From Promethearchaeota archaeon (lineage in GTDB: Archaea; Asgardarchaeota; Lokiarchaeia; Sigyniarchaeales; SOKP01), in the NCBI GenBank assembly GCA_011364925.1, contig RDOA01000012.1, positions 1 through 64,000 of the forward strand: a stretch of DNA of 64,000 nt, in the 5' to 3' direction. The first letter of the stretch is position 1. The number at the start of each line of letters is the position of its first letter. Positions 23,691 to 30,157 of the stretch are shown here, in pieces. Below the pieces are notes generated by a model, which saw nothing but the letters and a program-made list of their open reading frames with translations, was not told where the DNA came from and did no database searches. The translations under genes and the position numbers were made by a program.

Positions 23691-24092
23691 ATGGATTTTG
23701 ACGAGGAATTTGATAAGGAGTTCGACGAAGAATTGGAGGAGGATTTTGACGAAAACTTAGATGAAGATTTTGACGAACCTACTTCAAAAACTCCTCCTGA
23801 CGATGTTAAAGTTAAGACTCCAGAACCTCATCTCCCTCCTGAAGGAAAAAAGATATCTGTATTTTTTCTTTCTACTATTGGTCCGGGAGAAAAAAAACAA
23901 AAATTACTAGTATATACTGGTAATAAAGTTGGAGACATTAAAGATACTGTGGCAAATTTGTTTGCGCTAGATCCATCCGATTTCCATTTGTCTTCAGGAG
24001 GAGTGACAATGGATGAGACATCTTACCTAAGCGATTATAATGTAGATGAAGGAGATGACATATTATTAATTCCTGCTAGCGTAGCAGGTTGA
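23691..24092 (+). CDS. Ubiquitin-like protein with acidic N-terminal extension, ending ...SVAG
   Basis: Beta-grasp pattern KVGDIK...FHLSSGGVTMDE...LSDYNVDEGDDILLI (compare ubiquitin [28 protein letters not shown]); free C-terminal Gly. Confidence 0.88.
   Translation: MDFDEEFDKEFDEELEEDFDENLDEDFDEPTSKTPPDDVKVKTPEPHLPPEGKKISVFFLSTIGPGEKKQKLLVYTGNKVGDIKDTVANLFALDPSDFHLSSGGVTMDETSYLSDYNVDEGDDILLIPASVAG
23694..23777 (+). repeat. In-frame degenerate 12-bp tandem repeat (7 units) encoding [D/E/N][F/L][D/E][E/K]
   Basis: gattttgacgag gaatttgataag gagttcgacgaa gaattggaggag gattttgacgaa aacttagatgaa gattttgacgaa. Confidence 0.8.
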
Positions 24093-24133: not shown

Positions 24134-24922
24134 CTATTTTTTTCTCGATGGTATTAACGCGATCTCGTCATCGTCGTCAATAGAATAATCCCTTATCTGC
24201 TTTGATTCGTCTAACAATATCCCACCGGTGGATAGGAGAAAATCTTCTAAAGCATAATCAAATAGAATTCCGACTTGTTCCTTGAGGATATTTACTAATT
24301 CTGAAGTTTCAATAACGATTATTTTGGTTTTCTCGCCAGGTTCGACTAATGATCTTACATAAACGCGAATCTTATCATCCATTCCAATAGTGGTCAGTGG
24401 TGGGTTGTACTGCACTTTTTCATTAGTTCTTTCCTTATATTGCAAGATATCTTTAATTAACCGTTTTCTTTCGCTAGGTTCAAAATATAGCATTTCTCTG
24501 ATAAAAAAGATTTTATCCATCTTTGATAACCCTAGCAAATCAATTTTGTCTAATTCTTCTCTATTGAACAATGTAAAAATGTAATCGTCGAAGGTCTCAA
24601 TTTTTTCAAAAGTTTCATCGCTATCTGCATATTGATCTACTAATGGCATAGCTTCGAAGTAATCTTCGATTAGTTCGCTTGTAGTTCTATGTATTGGATT
24701 TAACTTTTTAGCGTATTTATCTTTTTTTATCTTTTTAGCGGGACTACCCGTAGAAGATACAACGGTATAGATCGTGCCCGTTGACAATACCGCAACGCTC
24801 CCAACAGTTAGAAAGAGGAATAGAGGTAAACTTTCTATCTGCATTAAGAAAAAAATCAAATAGAGTATTGCAAAAACAATGTAAAGAGTTAAAATACTTA
24901 GAATTCTAAATTTTTTTTTCAT
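24134..24922 (-). CDS. Membrane-anchored (2 TM) protein with C-terminal non-conjugatable Ubl domain
   Basis: Two hydrophobic N-terminal segments; C-terminal PGEKTK...DFLLSTGGILLDESKQIRDYSIDDDDEIALIPSRKK is paralogous to the neighbouring Ubls. Confidence 0.85.
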   Translation of the reverse strand: MKKKFRILSILTLYIVFAILYLIFFLMQIESLPLFLFLTVGSVAVLSTGTIYTVVSSTGSPAKKIKKDKYAKKLNPIHRTTSELIEDYFEAMPLVDQYADSDETFEKIETFDDYIFTLFNREELDKIDLLGLSKMDKIFFIREMLYFEPSERKRLIKDILQYKERTNEKVQYNPPLTTIGMDDKIRVYVRSLVEPGEKTKIIVIETSELVNILKEQVGILFDYALEDFLLSTGGILLDESKQIRDYSIDDDDEIALIPSRKK

Positions 24923-25000
24923 GGTTTTTTGGCGAATCTATTCTCTAAATTTATGATTTAAATGGTATCTAATAAATCGCATTGGTATAACTTTGTAATT

Positions 25001-25675
25001 TTATATATCATAAGGAACTGATTTTCTAATATTCTCATATCTCTTGGAGTCTAATTTATATAAATCTCTTTTTTTATCTTTTTCAATTGATATTAATTTT
25101 AAATTCATTAAAATTTCAAGATATTTTTTAATTGTATTGTAATTACCTTTTAGGATAGAAGCTATTTCAGTAATTTTCAAAGAATTATCTTCACTCTTTA
25201 ATAGATTTATAATCTCACGAACGATTTCTTGCTTTAAATAATAATATATCTCGTCTAAATCTGGATCTGAATCGTAATCAAAAATAATTCTTTGATTCTC
25301 TATTTTCTTCGACCGTGTAAATCTGAACTTTTCTAAACATGATAAATGCCATAACGCTTGATTACTTCCAATATTTATTGCTTTCATTATTTCATTTACA
25401 TTGGATGGAGTCTTTCGGATATAATTATAAATTTCATTTCGGATTGGATGTTCAATAATGTTATTTTTCATTAATCTAGTTCCAGGGATTAGAATTCTTT
25501 TTTTAATAAGGTTTTTAATAAAGATTTCGATACTATTTCTGTTCAATTCAGGATTAGCTCTTACCCTATTATTGATGAACACCACGATATCTTCGACAGA
25601 AAAGAACGGTTTCTTTTTTAAATATTCCTCTATTAGACCACAGACAATAGATTGAAGGCTATCAGGCTTGCTCAT
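25001..25675 (-). CDS. Tandem winged-HTH (ArsR-like) regulator
   Basis: RNEIYNYIRKTP...WHLSCLEKF and KITEIASILKGNYNTIKKYLEILMNLKLI. Confidence 0.8.
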   Translation of the reverse strand: MSKPDSLQSIVCGLIEEYLKKKPFFSVEDIVVFINNRVRANPELNRNSIEIFIKNLIKKRILIPGTRLMKNNIIEHPIRNEIYNYIRKTPSNVNEIMKAINIGSNQALWHLSCLEKFRFTRSKKIENQRIIFDYDSDPDLDEIYYYLKQEIVREIINLLKSEDNSLKITEIASILKGNYNTIKKYLEILMNLKLISIEKDKKRDLYKLDSKRYENIRKSVPYDI

Positions 25676-25944
25676 AAGCTTATTGTTTTAATGTGTTGAA
25701 TTATACGATTTTTATAATCAAATCTTCTCTCTAAAAGGATATTTTTCAATTTATATATATTGATAAACAATCATTTAATTTATAAGTATATTAAACTAGG
25801 CATTTTAATCTTAATGAATACATTTTTTACATATAACTTAAAAATCTTCAAAATCATTCCAATCGGTTTTTTAACTCAATATTTTCACCATTAATATAAG
25901 TCTAAAAAAAAACTTAAACTAAAAAAACCAAGGAAGCGATTTGA

Positions 25945-26277
25945 ATGAGTTTTGAAGAAGATTTTGATGAGGAATTAGAACCAGTTAAATCTAAAACCCC
26001 ATCAAGTAAAACACCCTCAACAGGTAAGAAGTTGACTTTATATTTTATGTCAACTATTGGTCCTGGTGAAAAGAAGGAGAAGTTAACTGTCAATGATGCA
26101 AATCGGGTAAGTGATATTAAACAGACATTAGGAAATCTATTCGGTCTTGATCCAGATGAATTTCACTTATCATCTGGAGGTGTTACAATGGATGAGAATA
26201 GTCAATTAAAAGATTATAATGTCAATGACGGCGACGACATTCTTTTGATTCCAGCAAGTACTGCGGGATTAAATTAA
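25945..26277 (+). CDS. Ubiquitin-like protein with acidic N-tail and AG-LN pro-peptide end
   Basis: Close paralog of 23691..24092 (STIGPGEKK, FHLSSGGVTMDE, DYNV.DGDDILLIPAS.AG); directly upstream of the E1. Confidence 0.9.
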   Translation: MSFEEDFDEELEPVKSKTPSSKTPSTGKKLTLYFMSTIGPGEKKEKLTVNDANRVSDIKQTLGNLFGLDPDEFHLSSGGVTMDENSQLKDYNVNDGDDILLIPASTAGLN

Positions 26278-26310
26278 ATTTATATATCATTCTTTTCATA
26301 AAATTAATAA

Positions 26311-26345
26311 AAGGGCTTTAAGCCCTTCAATTTTTTTATTTTTTT
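26311..26345 (+). terminator. Inverted repeat plus T-tract between Ubl and E1
   Basis: AAGGGCTT-T-AAGCCCTT (26311-26327) followed by caatttttttattttttt. Confidence 0.55.
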
Positions 26346-26356
26346 GAACAATATTA

Positions 26357-27592
26357 ATGGTGATAATATTGCATAAGGATTCAGATTTTTTTGCAAAGGG
26401 ATTGTCAGAAGAAGAGAGAGACTTATACGATCGTCAATTTCGTTTAGAAGGATGGTCCCAAAAATTAGTAAAAAAATCGAGAGTTTTAATCGCGGGAGTA
26501 GGAGGGTTAGGATGTGAAATTGCTAAGAATTTAGCTATGTTAGGGGTAGGCCATATAGATCTCGTGGATCTAGATATCATCGAACACTCTAACTTAAACC
26601 GCCAAGTTCTGTTTGCAGGCGCAAAGCTGGGAGAACCGAAAGCAATTGCGGCTGCAAAAAAGTTAGCTGAAATTAATCCTAATATTATTGTTAATGGATA
26701 CCATTCATCGTTAGAACGATTAGAGCCCTCTCTCTACTATAATGCTGATGTTGTTATAGGGGGACTTGATTCAATGAATGCGAGATTAAATTTAAACGCT
26801 CAATGTATTAGATTTAGGAAACCATTAGTAGATGGAGGGGTTTCTGGCTATTATGGACATGTATATACAATATTCCCATATCGGAATGCATGTTATGAAT
26901 GCAATCCGCTGCCAGATGTGGCAAGTGATGAAATGGCAGCTTGTACCGTAGTTGGTATCCCTCGAAAAAGAATTCATTGCGTTTTTAAAGGAGATATGGC
27001 CTTCAAAGAAAAATTTGATAGAGATCCGAATCCTAAAAATGTAGAAGAGATAAGGTTTATTCAAAAAGTTGCAAATGAACTTGTTACAAAACACAATTTC
27101 TTTCCTGAATATACAGAAGATGATATTGTAAAAATTATTGATCGCCATGATCCAGGAATTATAACAATAAACGCAACAATATCAGCTTTACAATCTCACG
27201 AAGCGATTAAAATCCTTCATTGGAAAAACGGTCATAAAGGATTAGGTGAACCAATTATAAATTATATGATATTTAATGCTATGACAATGAAATTATACCA
27301 CATTGAAAAGAAGAGAAATCCAGAATGTTCTCAATGTGGTAAAAATGTGAGACGCGTTGTAATTAAAATGAGAGAAAACTCTCCATGCATGAATATAATT
27401 AAAATATTACAAAAAAATGGATACAAATTAGAATCGGAATTTGAACCAGTATTAACTCTTTTGGATTTTAACGATATAATTGTTCTAGATTTAGAGCAAA
27501 ATCCAATTCAAAATGGTTTGAGGATTTACGAATTTCTCACGGTTGCGGGGTTTGAAGGAGGAGAAATATACGTAACCTTAAAATTTAAATAA
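26357..27592 (+). CDS. Ubl-activating enzyme E1 (ThiF fold, UBA2/UBA3-like)
   Basis: YDRQ, GVGGLG, SNLNRQ, Zn site CYEC...CSQC, catalytic-Cys motif ACT followed by PRKRIHC, C-terminal extension. Confidence 0.93.
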   Translation: MVIILHKDSDFFAKGLSEEERDLYDRQFRLEGWSQKLVKKSRVLIAGVGGLGCEIAKNLAMLGVGHIDLVDLDIIEHSNLNRQVLFAGAKLGEPKAIAAAKKLAEINPNIIVNGYHSSLERLEPSLYYNADVVIGGLDSMNARLNLNAQCIRFRKPLVDGGVSGYYGHVYTIFPYRNACYECNPLPDVASDEMAACTVVGIPRKRIHCVFKGDMAFKEKFDRDPNPKNVEEIRFIQKVANELVTKHNFFPEYTEDDIVKIIDRHDPGIITINATISALQSHEAIKILHWKNGHKGLGEPIINYMIFNAMTMKLYHIEKKRNPECSQCGKNVRRVVIKMRENSPCMNIIKILQKNGYKLESEFEPVLTLLDFNDIIVLDLEQNPIQNGLRIYEFLTVAGFEGGEIYVTLKFK

Positions 27593-27658
27593 ATAATTTA
27601 TCCAAAATATAAATCTAATAAAAAATTATAAAAAAAAACAAAAAACGGGGTTAAAGAT

Positions 27659-28186
27659 ATGAGTATAAGAAGTAGTCGAGTCTCTCGAGATTTTGCGGGA
27701 CTTAAAAGATTGCTAAAGGAAGGTACCATCATCCAATTAAAGCCATTTAATCCAAAAAAAAAGAGTATTGATCACTTAGCTTTAACGGTTAAAGGTCCTA
27801 AAGGAACAGCTTACGCAGGAGGATTGTTCAGATTGGAAATGAAGTTTCCTGTTCAGTACCCTAAACAACCTCCTTTTGTGAGATTGCACACTCCTATTTG
27901 GCATCCAAATTTTTGGCCAAAACCTAATGAATATAAAGGACAAAGAAATATTTGCTTAGCGTTAGTAGATCCGTCTCTAGTGGGGACAAAAGGTGGATGG
28001 AGCCCTTCGAAAACAGCTGTTACAGTTGTTCAAGCAATCATTGCTATGCTCAACACGCGAGGTAAGTATGTCAATCCAACTGATGTGTTTAATAAAAAAG
28101 CAGCGATAGAAATGATAAAGGATCCTAAAATGTTTGAAAAGAAAGTGAAAAGCTTAACTAAGAAATACGCTAAGGATAAATGGTGA
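27659..28186 (+). CDS. Ubl-conjugating enzyme E2 (UBC fold)
   Basis: GPKGTAYAGGLF, FP.QYP..PP, WHPN, ICL catalytic Cys, WSPS. Confidence 0.95.
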   Translation: MSIRSSRVSRDFAGLKRLLKEGTIIQLKPFNPKKKSIDHLALTVKGPKGTAYAGGLFRLEMKFPVQYPKQPPFVRLHTPIWHPNFWPKPNEYKGQRNICLALVDPSLVGTKGGWSPSKTAVTVVQAIIAMLNTRGKYVNPTDVFNKKAAIEMIKDPKMFEKKVKSLTKKYAKDKW

Positions 28187-28193
28187 TTATGGA

Positions 28194-29003
28194 ATGGGCA
28201 TTGACGAAAATAATTCTAGTTCCATTAGAGATGCGATAAAACAGAGAATTAAAGAGAAAATTAAAAAAGAACTCCTCGAAGAAGTGTACACTGAATTACA
28301 ATTAGAAGAATTACAAGAAGAAATAACCGCTGAATTTATCGATGTAAAACCGATAAATCACTCTAAATATATCAAAGCTAACCTTGAACCAATTCCAATG
28401 GAACCCGTAGTAGAAACTGTGGCTAGAAGCGATAAAATTGAAGCGACTATAACAATCACGATAAAAGCAGTTCTTAAAATCGCCAGTCATTCTCTCAAAT
28501 ATGCGCATTCAAAAATACCTAGAGAACAATGGGTAGAAGTAATTGGCTTACTCGCTGGAAAGTATAATGAGTCTAACGGAATATTACATATTGAAGATGC
28601 TTATCCAATGGGGCATGGTACAGCGGTGTATGCTGAAATAAAGGATTATAAGAATTATGTTAGAGCTTTTAAAGATATCAAGAAAAAAAAGGGCTTATTC
28701 ATAGCAGGATGGTATCATAGCCACCCAAGTTATAGTTGCTTTATGTCAAGGGAAGATTTAAGCACACAGGCTAGATATCAAAAGCTTTGGGACAAAGCCG
28801 TTGCACTCGTAATCGATCCATTTTTAATTAACGGAAGATCAGTTGGATTTGAAATTTACCGCGCAAATTTTAAAACAAAGAAATGGTTTTCAGTGCCTTT
28901 TGAAATTAAAGGGCATTTAGATATTCGCATGTTACCGGAGATTATAGAATTCATGAATCCGATAATAGAAGGGAAACCAGCCTATTTAGAATATGATGAG
29001 TAA
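28194..29003 (+). CDS. JAMM/MPN+ metallo-isopeptidase (Rpn11/CSN5-like)
   Basis: EVIGLL, GWYHSHP-x5-S-x2-D, Q..YQ, AVALVIDP. Confidence 0.93.
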   Translation: MGIDENNSSSIRDAIKQRIKEKIKKELLEEVYTELQLEELQEEITAEFIDVKPINHSKYIKANLEPIPMEPVVETVARSDKIEATITITIKAVLKIASHSLKYAHSKIPREQWVEVIGLLAGKYNESNGILHIEDAYPMGHGTAVYAEIKDYKNYVRAFKDIKKKKGLFIAGWYHSHPSYSCFMSREDLSTQARYQKLWDKAVALVIDPFLINGRSVGFEIYRANFKTKKWFSVPFEIKGHLDIRMLPEIIEFMNPIIEGKPAYLEYDE

Positions 29004-29035
29004 AGAAAATAAGTTAATATTGTGATGTTTAAACC

Positions 29036-30157
29036 ATGGTTAAAAATAAAACCTTAACAATCATTTTTGCTATTTTTTTAGTTATTGGGGTAATTCATGG
29101 TTTAATCTCTCTTTCTTTTTTAAATTTTGCAACCTGGGTTTTAATAGGATTATGGGTAATATTTACAATAAAATTATATGTAAACATAAAACGGCACCGT
29201 GAGTTTAATTCGCCACATAATACTGCATTTTTTGTCATTATTCCGTTAACTATTGGAATATTTTACTCAATTTGGGGCTATTATACAGGAATTCTAGGAG
29301 AAAATTTACTCGGTGGAGTATATTTTAGTCTATGGAGCTTAATTTTTGCTTTTCCTTTTGTGATCTATGGATCCTACTCATTATATCGATGTTTCAAGAA
29401 ATACAATGTAATATATTTTGGGACCAAAGCTGTGAAAGCCCGAAAATTGGGATACATTCTTTCTTTTTCAGTTCTTATTTTTATTTTGATTTATTGGATA
29501 AGTTTTTATAGCGCAATTGAGAGTTTTCCGTTGGATTTGAATCTCTTAATACTATTTATAGCTACAATTTTAGTCGTAATAATATTTGGTTTTACTAATT
29601 CTCGTCCATCATTACCTACTTTAACACGCGATTATATTGCAAATCGTACTAGAACAATAAACAATTTAACTACGCCTACAACACAACGACAGCGTTTACG
29701 GACTACAAGAGTAACCGCTCCTACTCCATCTACTAGAGCAACAACACAAACTTCAAGATCGAGAACTCATTCGTCAAGAATAACCCCTACATCACATAGA
29801 CAAACTACAAGAACTAAAACAACAAAAGTTACACACACAACTACTGTTAAACCTACTTCCAAAATTCGGAATATTAATAATTATAAACCCAGAGCATCGT
29901 ATTTGTCATTAGAAGATTTTAAGTGTATCTTTTGTTTTAAGCTACCAAAACTTCCTGATGACAAGGGTCGAGGAGTGGTTATATGTCCAAATTGCAGATA
30001 TCCCTCCCATGCGGATGAATTCAAAGATTGGATGCGCACTTCAAATCTTTGTTCGCGTTGTAGTGCTCCTATTCCTACCAGCTTTAGGCGTAATCCCAGT
30101 ATAGTAAGTGTAAAGAACTACATTATTGCTTATAAACAATTGTTAAAACGCAAATAA
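29036..30157 (+). CDS. Multi-pass membrane protein with Thr/Arg-rich linker and C-terminal RING-like domain; putative E3 ligase
   Basis: About 6 hydrophobic segments; CIFC...CPNCRYPSH...W...CSRC; last gene of the E1-E2-JAMM run. Confidence 0.78.
   Translation: MVKNKTLTIIFAIFLVIGVIHGLISLSFLNFATWVLIGLWVIFTIKLYVNIKRHREFNSPHNTAFFVIIPLTIGIFYSIWGYYTGILGENLLGGVYFSLWSLIFAFPFVIYGSYSLYRCFKKYNVIYFGTKAVKARKLGYILSFSVLIFILIYWISFYSAIESFPLDLNLLILFIATILVVIIFGFTNSRPSLPTLTRDYIANRTRTINNLTTPTTQRQRLRTTRVTAPTPSTRATTQTSRSRTHSSRITPTSHRQTTRTKTTKVTHTTTVKPTSKIRNINNYKPRASYLSLEDFKCIFCFKLPKLPDDKGRGVVICPNCRYPSHADEFKDWMRTSNLCSRCSAPIPTSFRRNPSIVSVKNYIIAYKQLLKRK

Follow-up and report, generated by a model that had tools for sequence, protein, structure and literature searches.

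What does a copy of a protein modifier do when it is anchored in the membrane and lacks the end by which modifiers are activated? This question is raised by an open reading frame (positions 24134-24922, minus strand) in a window of 64,000 nucleotides from a Promethearchaeota archaeon of the class Lokiarchaeia (contig RDOA01000012.1, positions 1 to 64,000). The frame is free of stops and encodes a protein of 262 aa, here called TM-Ubl. A preliminary description of the sequence had seen in it a transmembrane (TM) hairpin, a helical middle region and a ubiquitin-like (Ubl) domain derived from soluble Ubls, and had proposed, by analogy with eukaryotic scaffolds of membrane E3 ligases, an adaptor or decoy that recruits E1, E2, JAMM or an AAA ATPase to the membrane. 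The ubiquitin-like systems of Asgard archaea are investigated as precursors of the eukaryotic system; we know of no account of how they are regulated or how they are connected to the membrane.

The TM-Ubl gene and its neighbours

The locus comprises, in this order, a gene for a coiled-coil protein (minus strand), Ubl-A (plus strand), TM-Ubl (minus strand), a gene for a winged-helix protein (wHTH, minus strand) and, on the plus strand, the genes for Ubl-B, E1, E2, JAMM and a TM protein with a Cys/His finger. Ubl-A (23691-24092, plus strand) ends in SVAG, and its gene is convergent with the TM-Ubl gene. Ubl-B (25945-26277), which ends in STAG-LN, opens a presumed regulated operon (25945-30157, plus strand) that continues with E1 (ThiF), E2 (UQ_con), JAMM and TM-RING, as we call the TM protein, whose Cys/His finger is C-terminal and whose gene lies about 4 kb from TM-Ubl. 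Relatives have the same layout even where their TM-Ubl has diverged to 57-61% identity. The TM-Ubl family gave 421 matches at E ≤ 0.001, and TM-Ubl was found in 86 of the 151 genomes, always as a single copy, and in 4 of the 29 genera sampled. A chance ORF or a pseudogene was rejected on the basis of these 421 homologs, the single-copy orthologs in 86 genomes and the conserved synteny. Comparison of sequences was sufficient to document the architecture, the paralogy, the synteny and the phyletic pattern of TM-Ubl.

Membrane anchor and topology

The domain order of TM-Ubl is TM-TM-tail-Ubl, where the tail is the helical middle domain and the Ubl is a C-terminal beta-grasp domain. Hydropathy analysis revealed two hydrophobic stretches at approximately residues 7-27 and 33-55. 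The first of them, TM1 (24842-24904, minus strand; hydropathy 2.0-2.7 in 19-aa windows), is preceded by the flank MKKKFR with four K/R and is hydrophobic in all orthologs, and TM2 (24758-24826, minus strand) was delimited by hydropathy and ortholog alignment. The two helices are joined by a loop of about 5 residues (MQIESL) that contains no K/R. Behind TM2 follows PAKKIKKDKYAKK, and residues 56-80 hold 8 K/R versus 1 D/E; they belong to a Lys-rich juxtamembrane linker (aa 56-84; 24671-24757, minus strand) that was modelled with low pLDDT. Because both flanks carry K/R and the loop is free of them, both termini of TM-Ubl are cytoplasmic by the positive-inside rule. The TM hairpin of the preliminary description corresponds to these two stretches with both ends in the cytoplasm. 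An extracellular Ubl, which had been set beforehand as the finding that speaks against that description, was rejected because of the charge distribution and the type-I topology of homologous tail carriers; the topology analysis instead puts the Ubl in the cytoplasm. The middle part was poorly described in a full-length AF2 model built on 33 orthologs (pLDDT 30-65); it was helical in this model as well as in a model of the domain alone, in agreement with the helical middle region noted earlier.

The Ubl domain and its Gly-free end

The Ubl domain (aa 184-258; 24149-24373, minus strand) is a paralog of both free Ubls. Residues 184-260 aligned without gaps to Ubl-A (23691-24092) with 39% identity (E 8e-17) and to Ubl-B (25945-26277) with 37% identity (E 9e-19), and the earlier claim that the domain derives from the soluble Ubls is supported by this 37-39% identity to both free neighbours. 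In the AF2 model, residues 184-258 form a beta-grasp (pLDDT 75-86) composed of four strands (184-191, 198-205, 228-232 and 252-258) and one helix (210-221). Foldseek matched this model to ubiquitin, ISG15 and the ubiquitin of Caldiarchaeum (6fno) at E of about 1e-6, with TM by target of 0.76-0.93 and rmsd of 1.2-2.0 Å. The model and the matches to ubiquitin and ISG15 confirm the beta-grasp fold. The Pfam family PF00240 detected TM-Ubl at E 4.4e-4 with 20.4 bits, below the cut-off of 25.4 bits, whereas Ubl-B passes with 30.1 bits. The PGEK loop of the free Ubls is retained in this domain, as are their LS-x-GG and DY motifs.

After the last strand, TM-Ubl ends in IPSRKK and contains no Gly, whereas its free paralogs end in SVAG (Ubl-A) and STAG-LN (Ubl-B). 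The C-terminal SRKK together with the stop codon occupies positions 24134-24148 (minus strand) and, having no Gly, offers no site for E1 activation. The Gly-free end, which had been noticed in this one protein, turned out to be a trait of the whole family: 63 of the 120 best homologs end in ALIPSRKK, nearly all others end in close variants, and a single one of the 120 terminates with Gly (ALVPNYLG). The same Gly-free end was present in 33 fetched TM-Ubl ortholog loci. Since E1 adenylation calls for a C-terminal Gly (GG or AG), the Ubl domain of TM-Ubl is, as judged from its sequence, non-conjugatable. Every element of the preliminary observation was confirmed.

The tail is a mobile domain of Lokiarchaeial surface proteins

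The middle region constitutes a domain of its own, the tail (aa 85-166; 24425-24670, minus strand). A profile of this domain (alignment A4) matched the target over 24428-24685 at E 5.5e-30. The domain is helical, has a length of about 85 aa and contains a three-helix core (aa 118-167). When it was refolded alone with a deeper alignment of 61 diverse sequences, the model reached a pLDDT of 73 overall and of 81-91 over the three-helix core. Sequence-profile searches of Pfam, NCBIfam and the PDB with the tail domain returned no match above threshold. A fold search of the middle domain, proposed as a check in the preliminary description, assigned no known fold: Foldseek found nothing in the PDB at E ≤ 0.001, and the best hits of VIA-align (wide) were generic helical bundles with Z of at most 4.5. 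An atlas search with the tail model retrieved only its own family and one Promethearchaeota cluster, and a query of the protein atlas by features gave no usable matches. The tail was also compared with the U7BR of Cue1 (Pfam PF18499), the E2-binding region of a membrane-anchored ERAD factor. Four of the 61 tail domains matched this family, the best at E 0.01 and all below cut-off; the target itself did not match, and the fold searches of the tail model by Foldseek and VIA-align gave no support for it.

A profile of residues 1-183 was searched against 1.84 billion representative proteins and gave 73 matches, of which a few are full-length relatives of TM-Ubl. Most of the other matches are proteins of 276-2081 aa that end in the tail domain, often with TM2 in front of it. 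The long tail carriers contain FG-GAP repeats, right-handed beta-helix/NosD, LamG/TSP3 or a WD40-type propeller, and they possess an N-terminal signal-type helix and one TM helix directly before the tail domain. Nearly all representatives have 0-9 residues behind the tail (105 in P0160), and a recognised domain in this position was found in the TM-Ubl family only. Of the 151 genomes sampled from the class, 118 encode the tail domain, in at most 20 copies each. In its sequence distribution, the tail is a separate, mobile domain that ends Lokiarchaeial surface proteins.

TM2 of TM-Ubl is common to the pre-tail TM helix of the surface-protein carriers, which the profile of residues 1-183 matches from approximately position 32, and TM1 probably occupies the position of their signal peptide. 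In TM2 the polar residues S42, S47, T50, Y52 and T53 are invariant, and the motif G-S-x-x-x-S-x-x-S/T-x-Y-Y is shared among pre-tail TM helices (alignment A3). The conservation of polar residues (G-S...S..S/T.Y.Y/T) in the pre-tail membrane helix, including 24758-24826, across distant carriers hints at a contact or a cleavage site inside the membrane.

Variations of the tail region were observed among the carriers. In many of them (P0144-P0189) the TM helix and the tail are separated by a Cys-rich ribbon (CPxC...YCxxC...CWSC), which is zinc finger-like by appearance (for example P0145, P0154, P0159 and P0185). Others end in a tandem double tail domain (P0137, P0140, P0148, P0151, P0155, P0178 and P0189, as well as L043, L045 and L046), so that two regulators per receptor might be bound.

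The tail is paired with a three-winged-helix protein

Directly upstream of TM-Ubl and on the same strand, positions 25001-25675 (minus strand) encode the wHTH protein, a three-winged-helix protein of 224 aa. Its residues 152-195 match Pfam HTH_5 (E 1.8e-7), and its sequence matches in the PDB are wHTH DNA-binding proteins; the third winged helix (150-205) is the part that matches ArsR/SmtB-type DNA binders. The wHTH gene was found directly upstream of TM-Ubl in all 33 TM-Ubl loci. Further carrier loci were fetched from other genomes, and in 19 of these 20 a wHTH paralog lies directly next to the carrier gene in the same orientation, in some loci before it and in others behind it. The genome studied here contains a second tail carrier, a type-I membrane protein of 460 aa followed by a wHTH paralog of 223 aa (31% identity to the wHTH protein beside TM-Ubl, E 2e-29), and also a third, weaker carrier/wHTH pair. 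Fused tail-wHTH proteins or longer wHTH forms were not found at E ≤ 1e-5, which is weak evidence.

Trees of the tail and of the wHTH protein have the same deepest split (100/100), which separates pairs with the wHTH gene upstream from pairs with the wHTH gene downstream. The upstream class contains the TM-Ubl pair, one propeller receptor and one beta-helix receptor. The parallel trees are consistent with co-inheritance; they reflect a single event among related sequences and are no statistical proof of co-evolution.

In one subclass of carrier loci (L040, L041, L042, L048 and L054), a short wHTH paralog (137-181 aa) was also noted directly before the receptor gene; in L040, L041 and L048 it lies between the receptor gene and the full-length regulator.

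The complex of the wHTH protein (alignment A5) with the tail domain (alignment A4) was predicted in three runs, along with three controls. The ipSAE was 0.72-0.73 in the three runs and 0.01 in the best of the three controls. In calibration, 58 of 80 solved complexes attained this mark, as did 2 of 110 mismatched pairs; these counts apply only roughly here since self-built alignments were used. The runs shared at least 96% of their contacts, and the pLDDT of the partner was at least 81. On the side of the wHTH protein the interface is formed by residues 15-68 and 104-117, that is, by the first two winged helices, and the third winged helix (150-205) lies outside the listed contacts. On the tail side the interface lies within residues 85-166. 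The tail residues Y98, F116, F140 and E143 of the interface are invariant in the alignment of 33 TM-Ubl sequences, as are W109 and H110 of the wHTH protein in the alignment of 32 wHTH sequences, where K54 and G65 are nearly so. The prediction supports binding of the tail of TM-Ubl to the adjacent wHTH protein.

TM-Ubl shares the features of a tail/wHTH module, namely a TM helix followed by a tail of about 85 aa, an adjacent co-directional wHTH paralog and a predicted docking of the two proteins. It departs from the module in that it has no large ectodomain but a loop of about 5 residues, and in that its tail is not terminal. We are fairly confident of this architecture and of the pairing with the regulator.

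The gap of 78 nt between the wHTH gene and TM-Ubl (24923-25000) contains a TATA-like TTTAAAT, placed approximately 35 nt ahead of the start codon, and lacks a long run of T. Because of this TATA-like run, TM-Ubl may have a promoter of its own besides read-through, and wHTH and TM-Ubl are perhaps not one transcript.

The divergent promoter region and the history of the cassette

In all 30 loci compared, the wHTH gene and Ubl-B are oriented divergently, and their start codons lie 241-276 nt apart. The divergent intergenic region (25676-25944) contains CTTCAAAATCATTCCAA at 25846-25862. In the conservation profile, drawn from relatives with 71% mean identity across that region, this block is strongly conserved and adjoins a TATA-like run. 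It is not a palindrome. Neither the region upstream of Ubl-A nor six Ubl promoters of genomes lacking the wHTH gene contain the block. We regard 25846-25862 as a candidate operator. A genome-wide search for the block gave 8 matches at ≤2 mismatches, versus 1 for a control pattern. A regulon was considered and found unsupported, the best extra match lying inside a coding region.

Most genera of the class have an ortholog of the operon E2 (about 70% identity or higher), and an E2 match at E ≤ 1e-20, paralogs counted too, was found in 145 of the 151 genomes. At seven operon loci whose genomes lack TM-Ubl, a single Ubl gene is present and the wHTH gene is missing; the six that extend far enough on this flank show the Ubl gene and the coiled-coil gene in divergent orientation. 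The derived order, in which two Ubl genes flank the wHTH/TM-Ubl pair, was seen at two more loci, both from genomes that have TM-Ubl, and Ubl-A is present only at loci that also hold this cassette. Loci without TM-Ubl thus have one Ubl and no wHTH gene and derived loci have two Ubls, from which we conclude that the cassette entered one lineage together with the extra Ubl copies.

A role for TM-Ubl and the alternatives

We lean, with somewhat better than even confidence, towards TM-Ubl being a receptor-type tether without an ectodomain, which takes its cytoplasmic, non-conjugatable Ubl as input and couples the tagging system to transcription of the operon. TM-Ubl would be a member of a Lokiarchaeial two-gene signalling module that consists of a membrane protein with an inner tail and a three-winged-helix protein. 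Ordinary members of the module have a signal peptide and a variable surface domain, then one TM helix and the tail of about 85 aa. TM-Ubl would have lost the outer domain, the surface part being reduced to a loop of about 5 residues, and would have gained a copy of the locus's own Ubl behind the tail. According to the docking model, the tail would hold the wHTH protein at the membrane via its first two winged helices and would leave the third, ArsR-like winged helix free. The wHTH protein in turn would control the divergent promoter of Ubl-B-E1-E2-JAMM-TM-RING. The Ubl domain might then act as input: a Ubl surface without an activatable end could be engaged by a Ubl-recognising component, for which E1, E2, JAMM, the membrane RING protein or a proteasome/Cdc48-type receptor are candidates, and this engagement would alter the hold of the tether on the regulator or its release. 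Four elements of this scheme are inferred: that the wHTH protein binds DNA, where its operator lies, in which direction it regulates and what engages the Ubl.

It is possible, and here we are tentative, that TM-Ubl is a prokaryotic feedback sensor in which the dead-end Ubl serves as bait and its occupancy by the tagging or degradation machinery holds or frees the wHTH protein, thereby setting operon expression. If true, such a sensor would be an archaeal counterpart, made of unrelated parts, of the eukaryotic membrane-bound transcription factors under ubiquitin and Cdc48/proteasome, and it would have been assembled recently, when a receptor/regulator cassette entered the operon together with a copy of a Ubl.

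A scaffold of the HERP/Usa1/TMUB1 type would give the protein a different role, in which the Ubl recruits E1, E2, JAMM or an AAA ATPase to the membrane RING and the rest is anchor or spacer. Such a scaffold agrees with the cytoplasmic beta-grasp domain and its PGEK loop, LS-x-GG and DY motifs of free Ubls, with the TM protein with a Cys/His finger encoded 4 kb away, and with the observation that a yeast deubiquitinase targeting the Hrd1 ligase is modulated by the UBL of Usa1 (PMC6914336). However, no part of the protein is shared as widely as the supposed spacer, which pairs with wHTH genes, not with ubiquitin enzymes, and the TM-Ubl gene is co-directional with the regulator and not with E1, E2, JAMM and TM-RING. 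The enzyme operon moreover exists without a TM-Ubl gene in most genera sampled, as E2 orthologs (at about 70% identity or more) are found in most genera and TM-Ubl in 86 of 151 genomes and 4 of 29 genera. Beyond the UBL fold, Pfam and NCBIfam gave no sign of a relation to HERP, Usa1 or TMUB1, and the tail domain and its partner are left unexplained, so that we consider a scaffold of this type quite unlikely. What stands of the adaptor put forward in the preliminary description is a membrane-anchored, cytoplasmic, Gly-less beta-grasp paralog; what does not stand is a mere anchor plus a Ubl that scaffolds an E3, as the middle region is a mobile domain whose recurrent partner is a wHTH protein and not a ubiquitin enzyme.

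The tail and the Ubl are both given a task if TM-Ubl is an adaptor for a substrate, the tail bringing the wHTH protein and the Ubl bringing E2 or the membrane RING, so that the wHTH protein is tagged and then degraded or activated. Eukaryotes possess membrane-bound transcription factors that are handled by ubiquitin, such as Spt23/Mga2 in yeast and NRF1 in mammals. This explanation uses all three conserved features, the tail-wHTH docking, the Ubl surface and the neighbouring membrane ligase gene, and fits a cassette that reached the operon as a single unit. Yet the wHTH protein is here a putative substrate only, and other tail/wHTH pairs get by with neither a Ubl nor a ligase close at hand; we regard this explanation as unlikely. 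Very unlikely, in our view, is a decoy or inhibitor whose dead-end Ubl occupies JAMM or E1 at the membrane and damps the pathway independently of gene control. A Ubl that is non-conjugatable and yet keeps the conserved Ubl surface motifs would suit this function, as would the inhibition of Ubp1 by the Usa1 UBL in yeast (PMC6914336), but the conserved tail, its predicted grip on the wHTH protein and the strict adjacency of the wHTH gene would find no explanation.

Comparison with known systems

HERP (HERPUD1) and yeast Usa1 belong to the Hrd1 ERAD ligase complex as integral membrane proteins with a UBL domain (PMC6914336, PMC3967970). TM-Ubl resembles HERP, Usa1 and TMUB1 in its hairpin-type anchor and its cytoplasmic non-conjugatable UBL near a membrane RING ligase, and in these proteins the UBL is a binding or modulating module and not a tag. 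In HERP and Usa1 the UBL is located N-terminal to the anchor, whereas the Ubl of TM-Ubl is C-terminal, behind a separate tail domain. TM-Ubl differs from HERP, Usa1 and TMUB1 also in that the recurrent partner of its tail is a DNA-binding-type protein and in that its gene belongs to a regulator pair, not to a ligase operon.

SigI/RsgI and other bacterial anti-sigma/sigma pairs comprise many paralogous membrane proteins with different outer domains that hold a transcription protein (PMC10328401, PMC12203970). The tail/wHTH module is comparable to RsgI/SigI in having a single-pass membrane protein with interchangeable outer domains and a cytoplasmic transcription protein encoded next door, and by analogy it may represent a kinase-free route to gene control. 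It differs in that the partner is a three-winged-helix protein instead of a sigma factor and in that the holder is C-terminal and unrelated in sequence; to our knowledge, archaea have no sigma factors. Release in the RsgI type proceeds by regulated intramembrane proteolysis. TM-Ubl stands further apart from RsgI since its variable input, the Ubl, is cytoplasmic and its outer domain is missing; the resemblance is confined to the logic.

The ubiquitin operon of Caldiarchaeum subterraneum and Asgard archaea (Ub, E1, E2, RING and Rpn11/JAMM; 6fno) is of the same kind as the operon next to TM-Ubl. Descriptions of it concern free, conjugatable Ubls, whereas TM-Ubl is a membrane-tethered dead-end paralog of the modifier. 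Literature searches found no membrane-tethered dead-end Ubl joined to a regulator-docking domain, and no paper on a membrane-anchored Asgard Ubl like TM-Ubl or on the tail/wHTH module. TM-Ubl is built from an undescribed tail domain and is kin in kind both to UBL-domain membrane proteins and to membrane tethers of transcription proteins. Its locus offers a concrete link, made up of a non-conjugatable Ubl, a new small domain with a predicted hold on a DNA-binding protein, and the promoter of the neighbouring operon, through which an Asgard ubiquitin-like system may be regulated and connected to the membrane. TM-Ubl also suggests that the tail/wHTH module of Lokiarchaeia can take a cytoplasmic input, which would broaden the range of what the module may sense. 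Binding tests are easy because all three proteins are small, and soluble without the anchor.

Variants of the operon in other genomes

In one related genome (G029), the orthologous E2 gene is split in two by a TAA stop (G029:C123:16742-17295). In a genome of another genus, two Ubl fusions of about 255-295 aa are encoded just after the TM-RING gene (L063:10550-11326 and L063:11621-12514, both plus strand). They are composed of an N-terminal CxxC region, a coiled stretch and a C-terminal Ubl with a conjugatable IPSSTAG and a short extension. These proteins are N-terminally extended pro-Ubls, a kind of fusion different from TM-Ubl.
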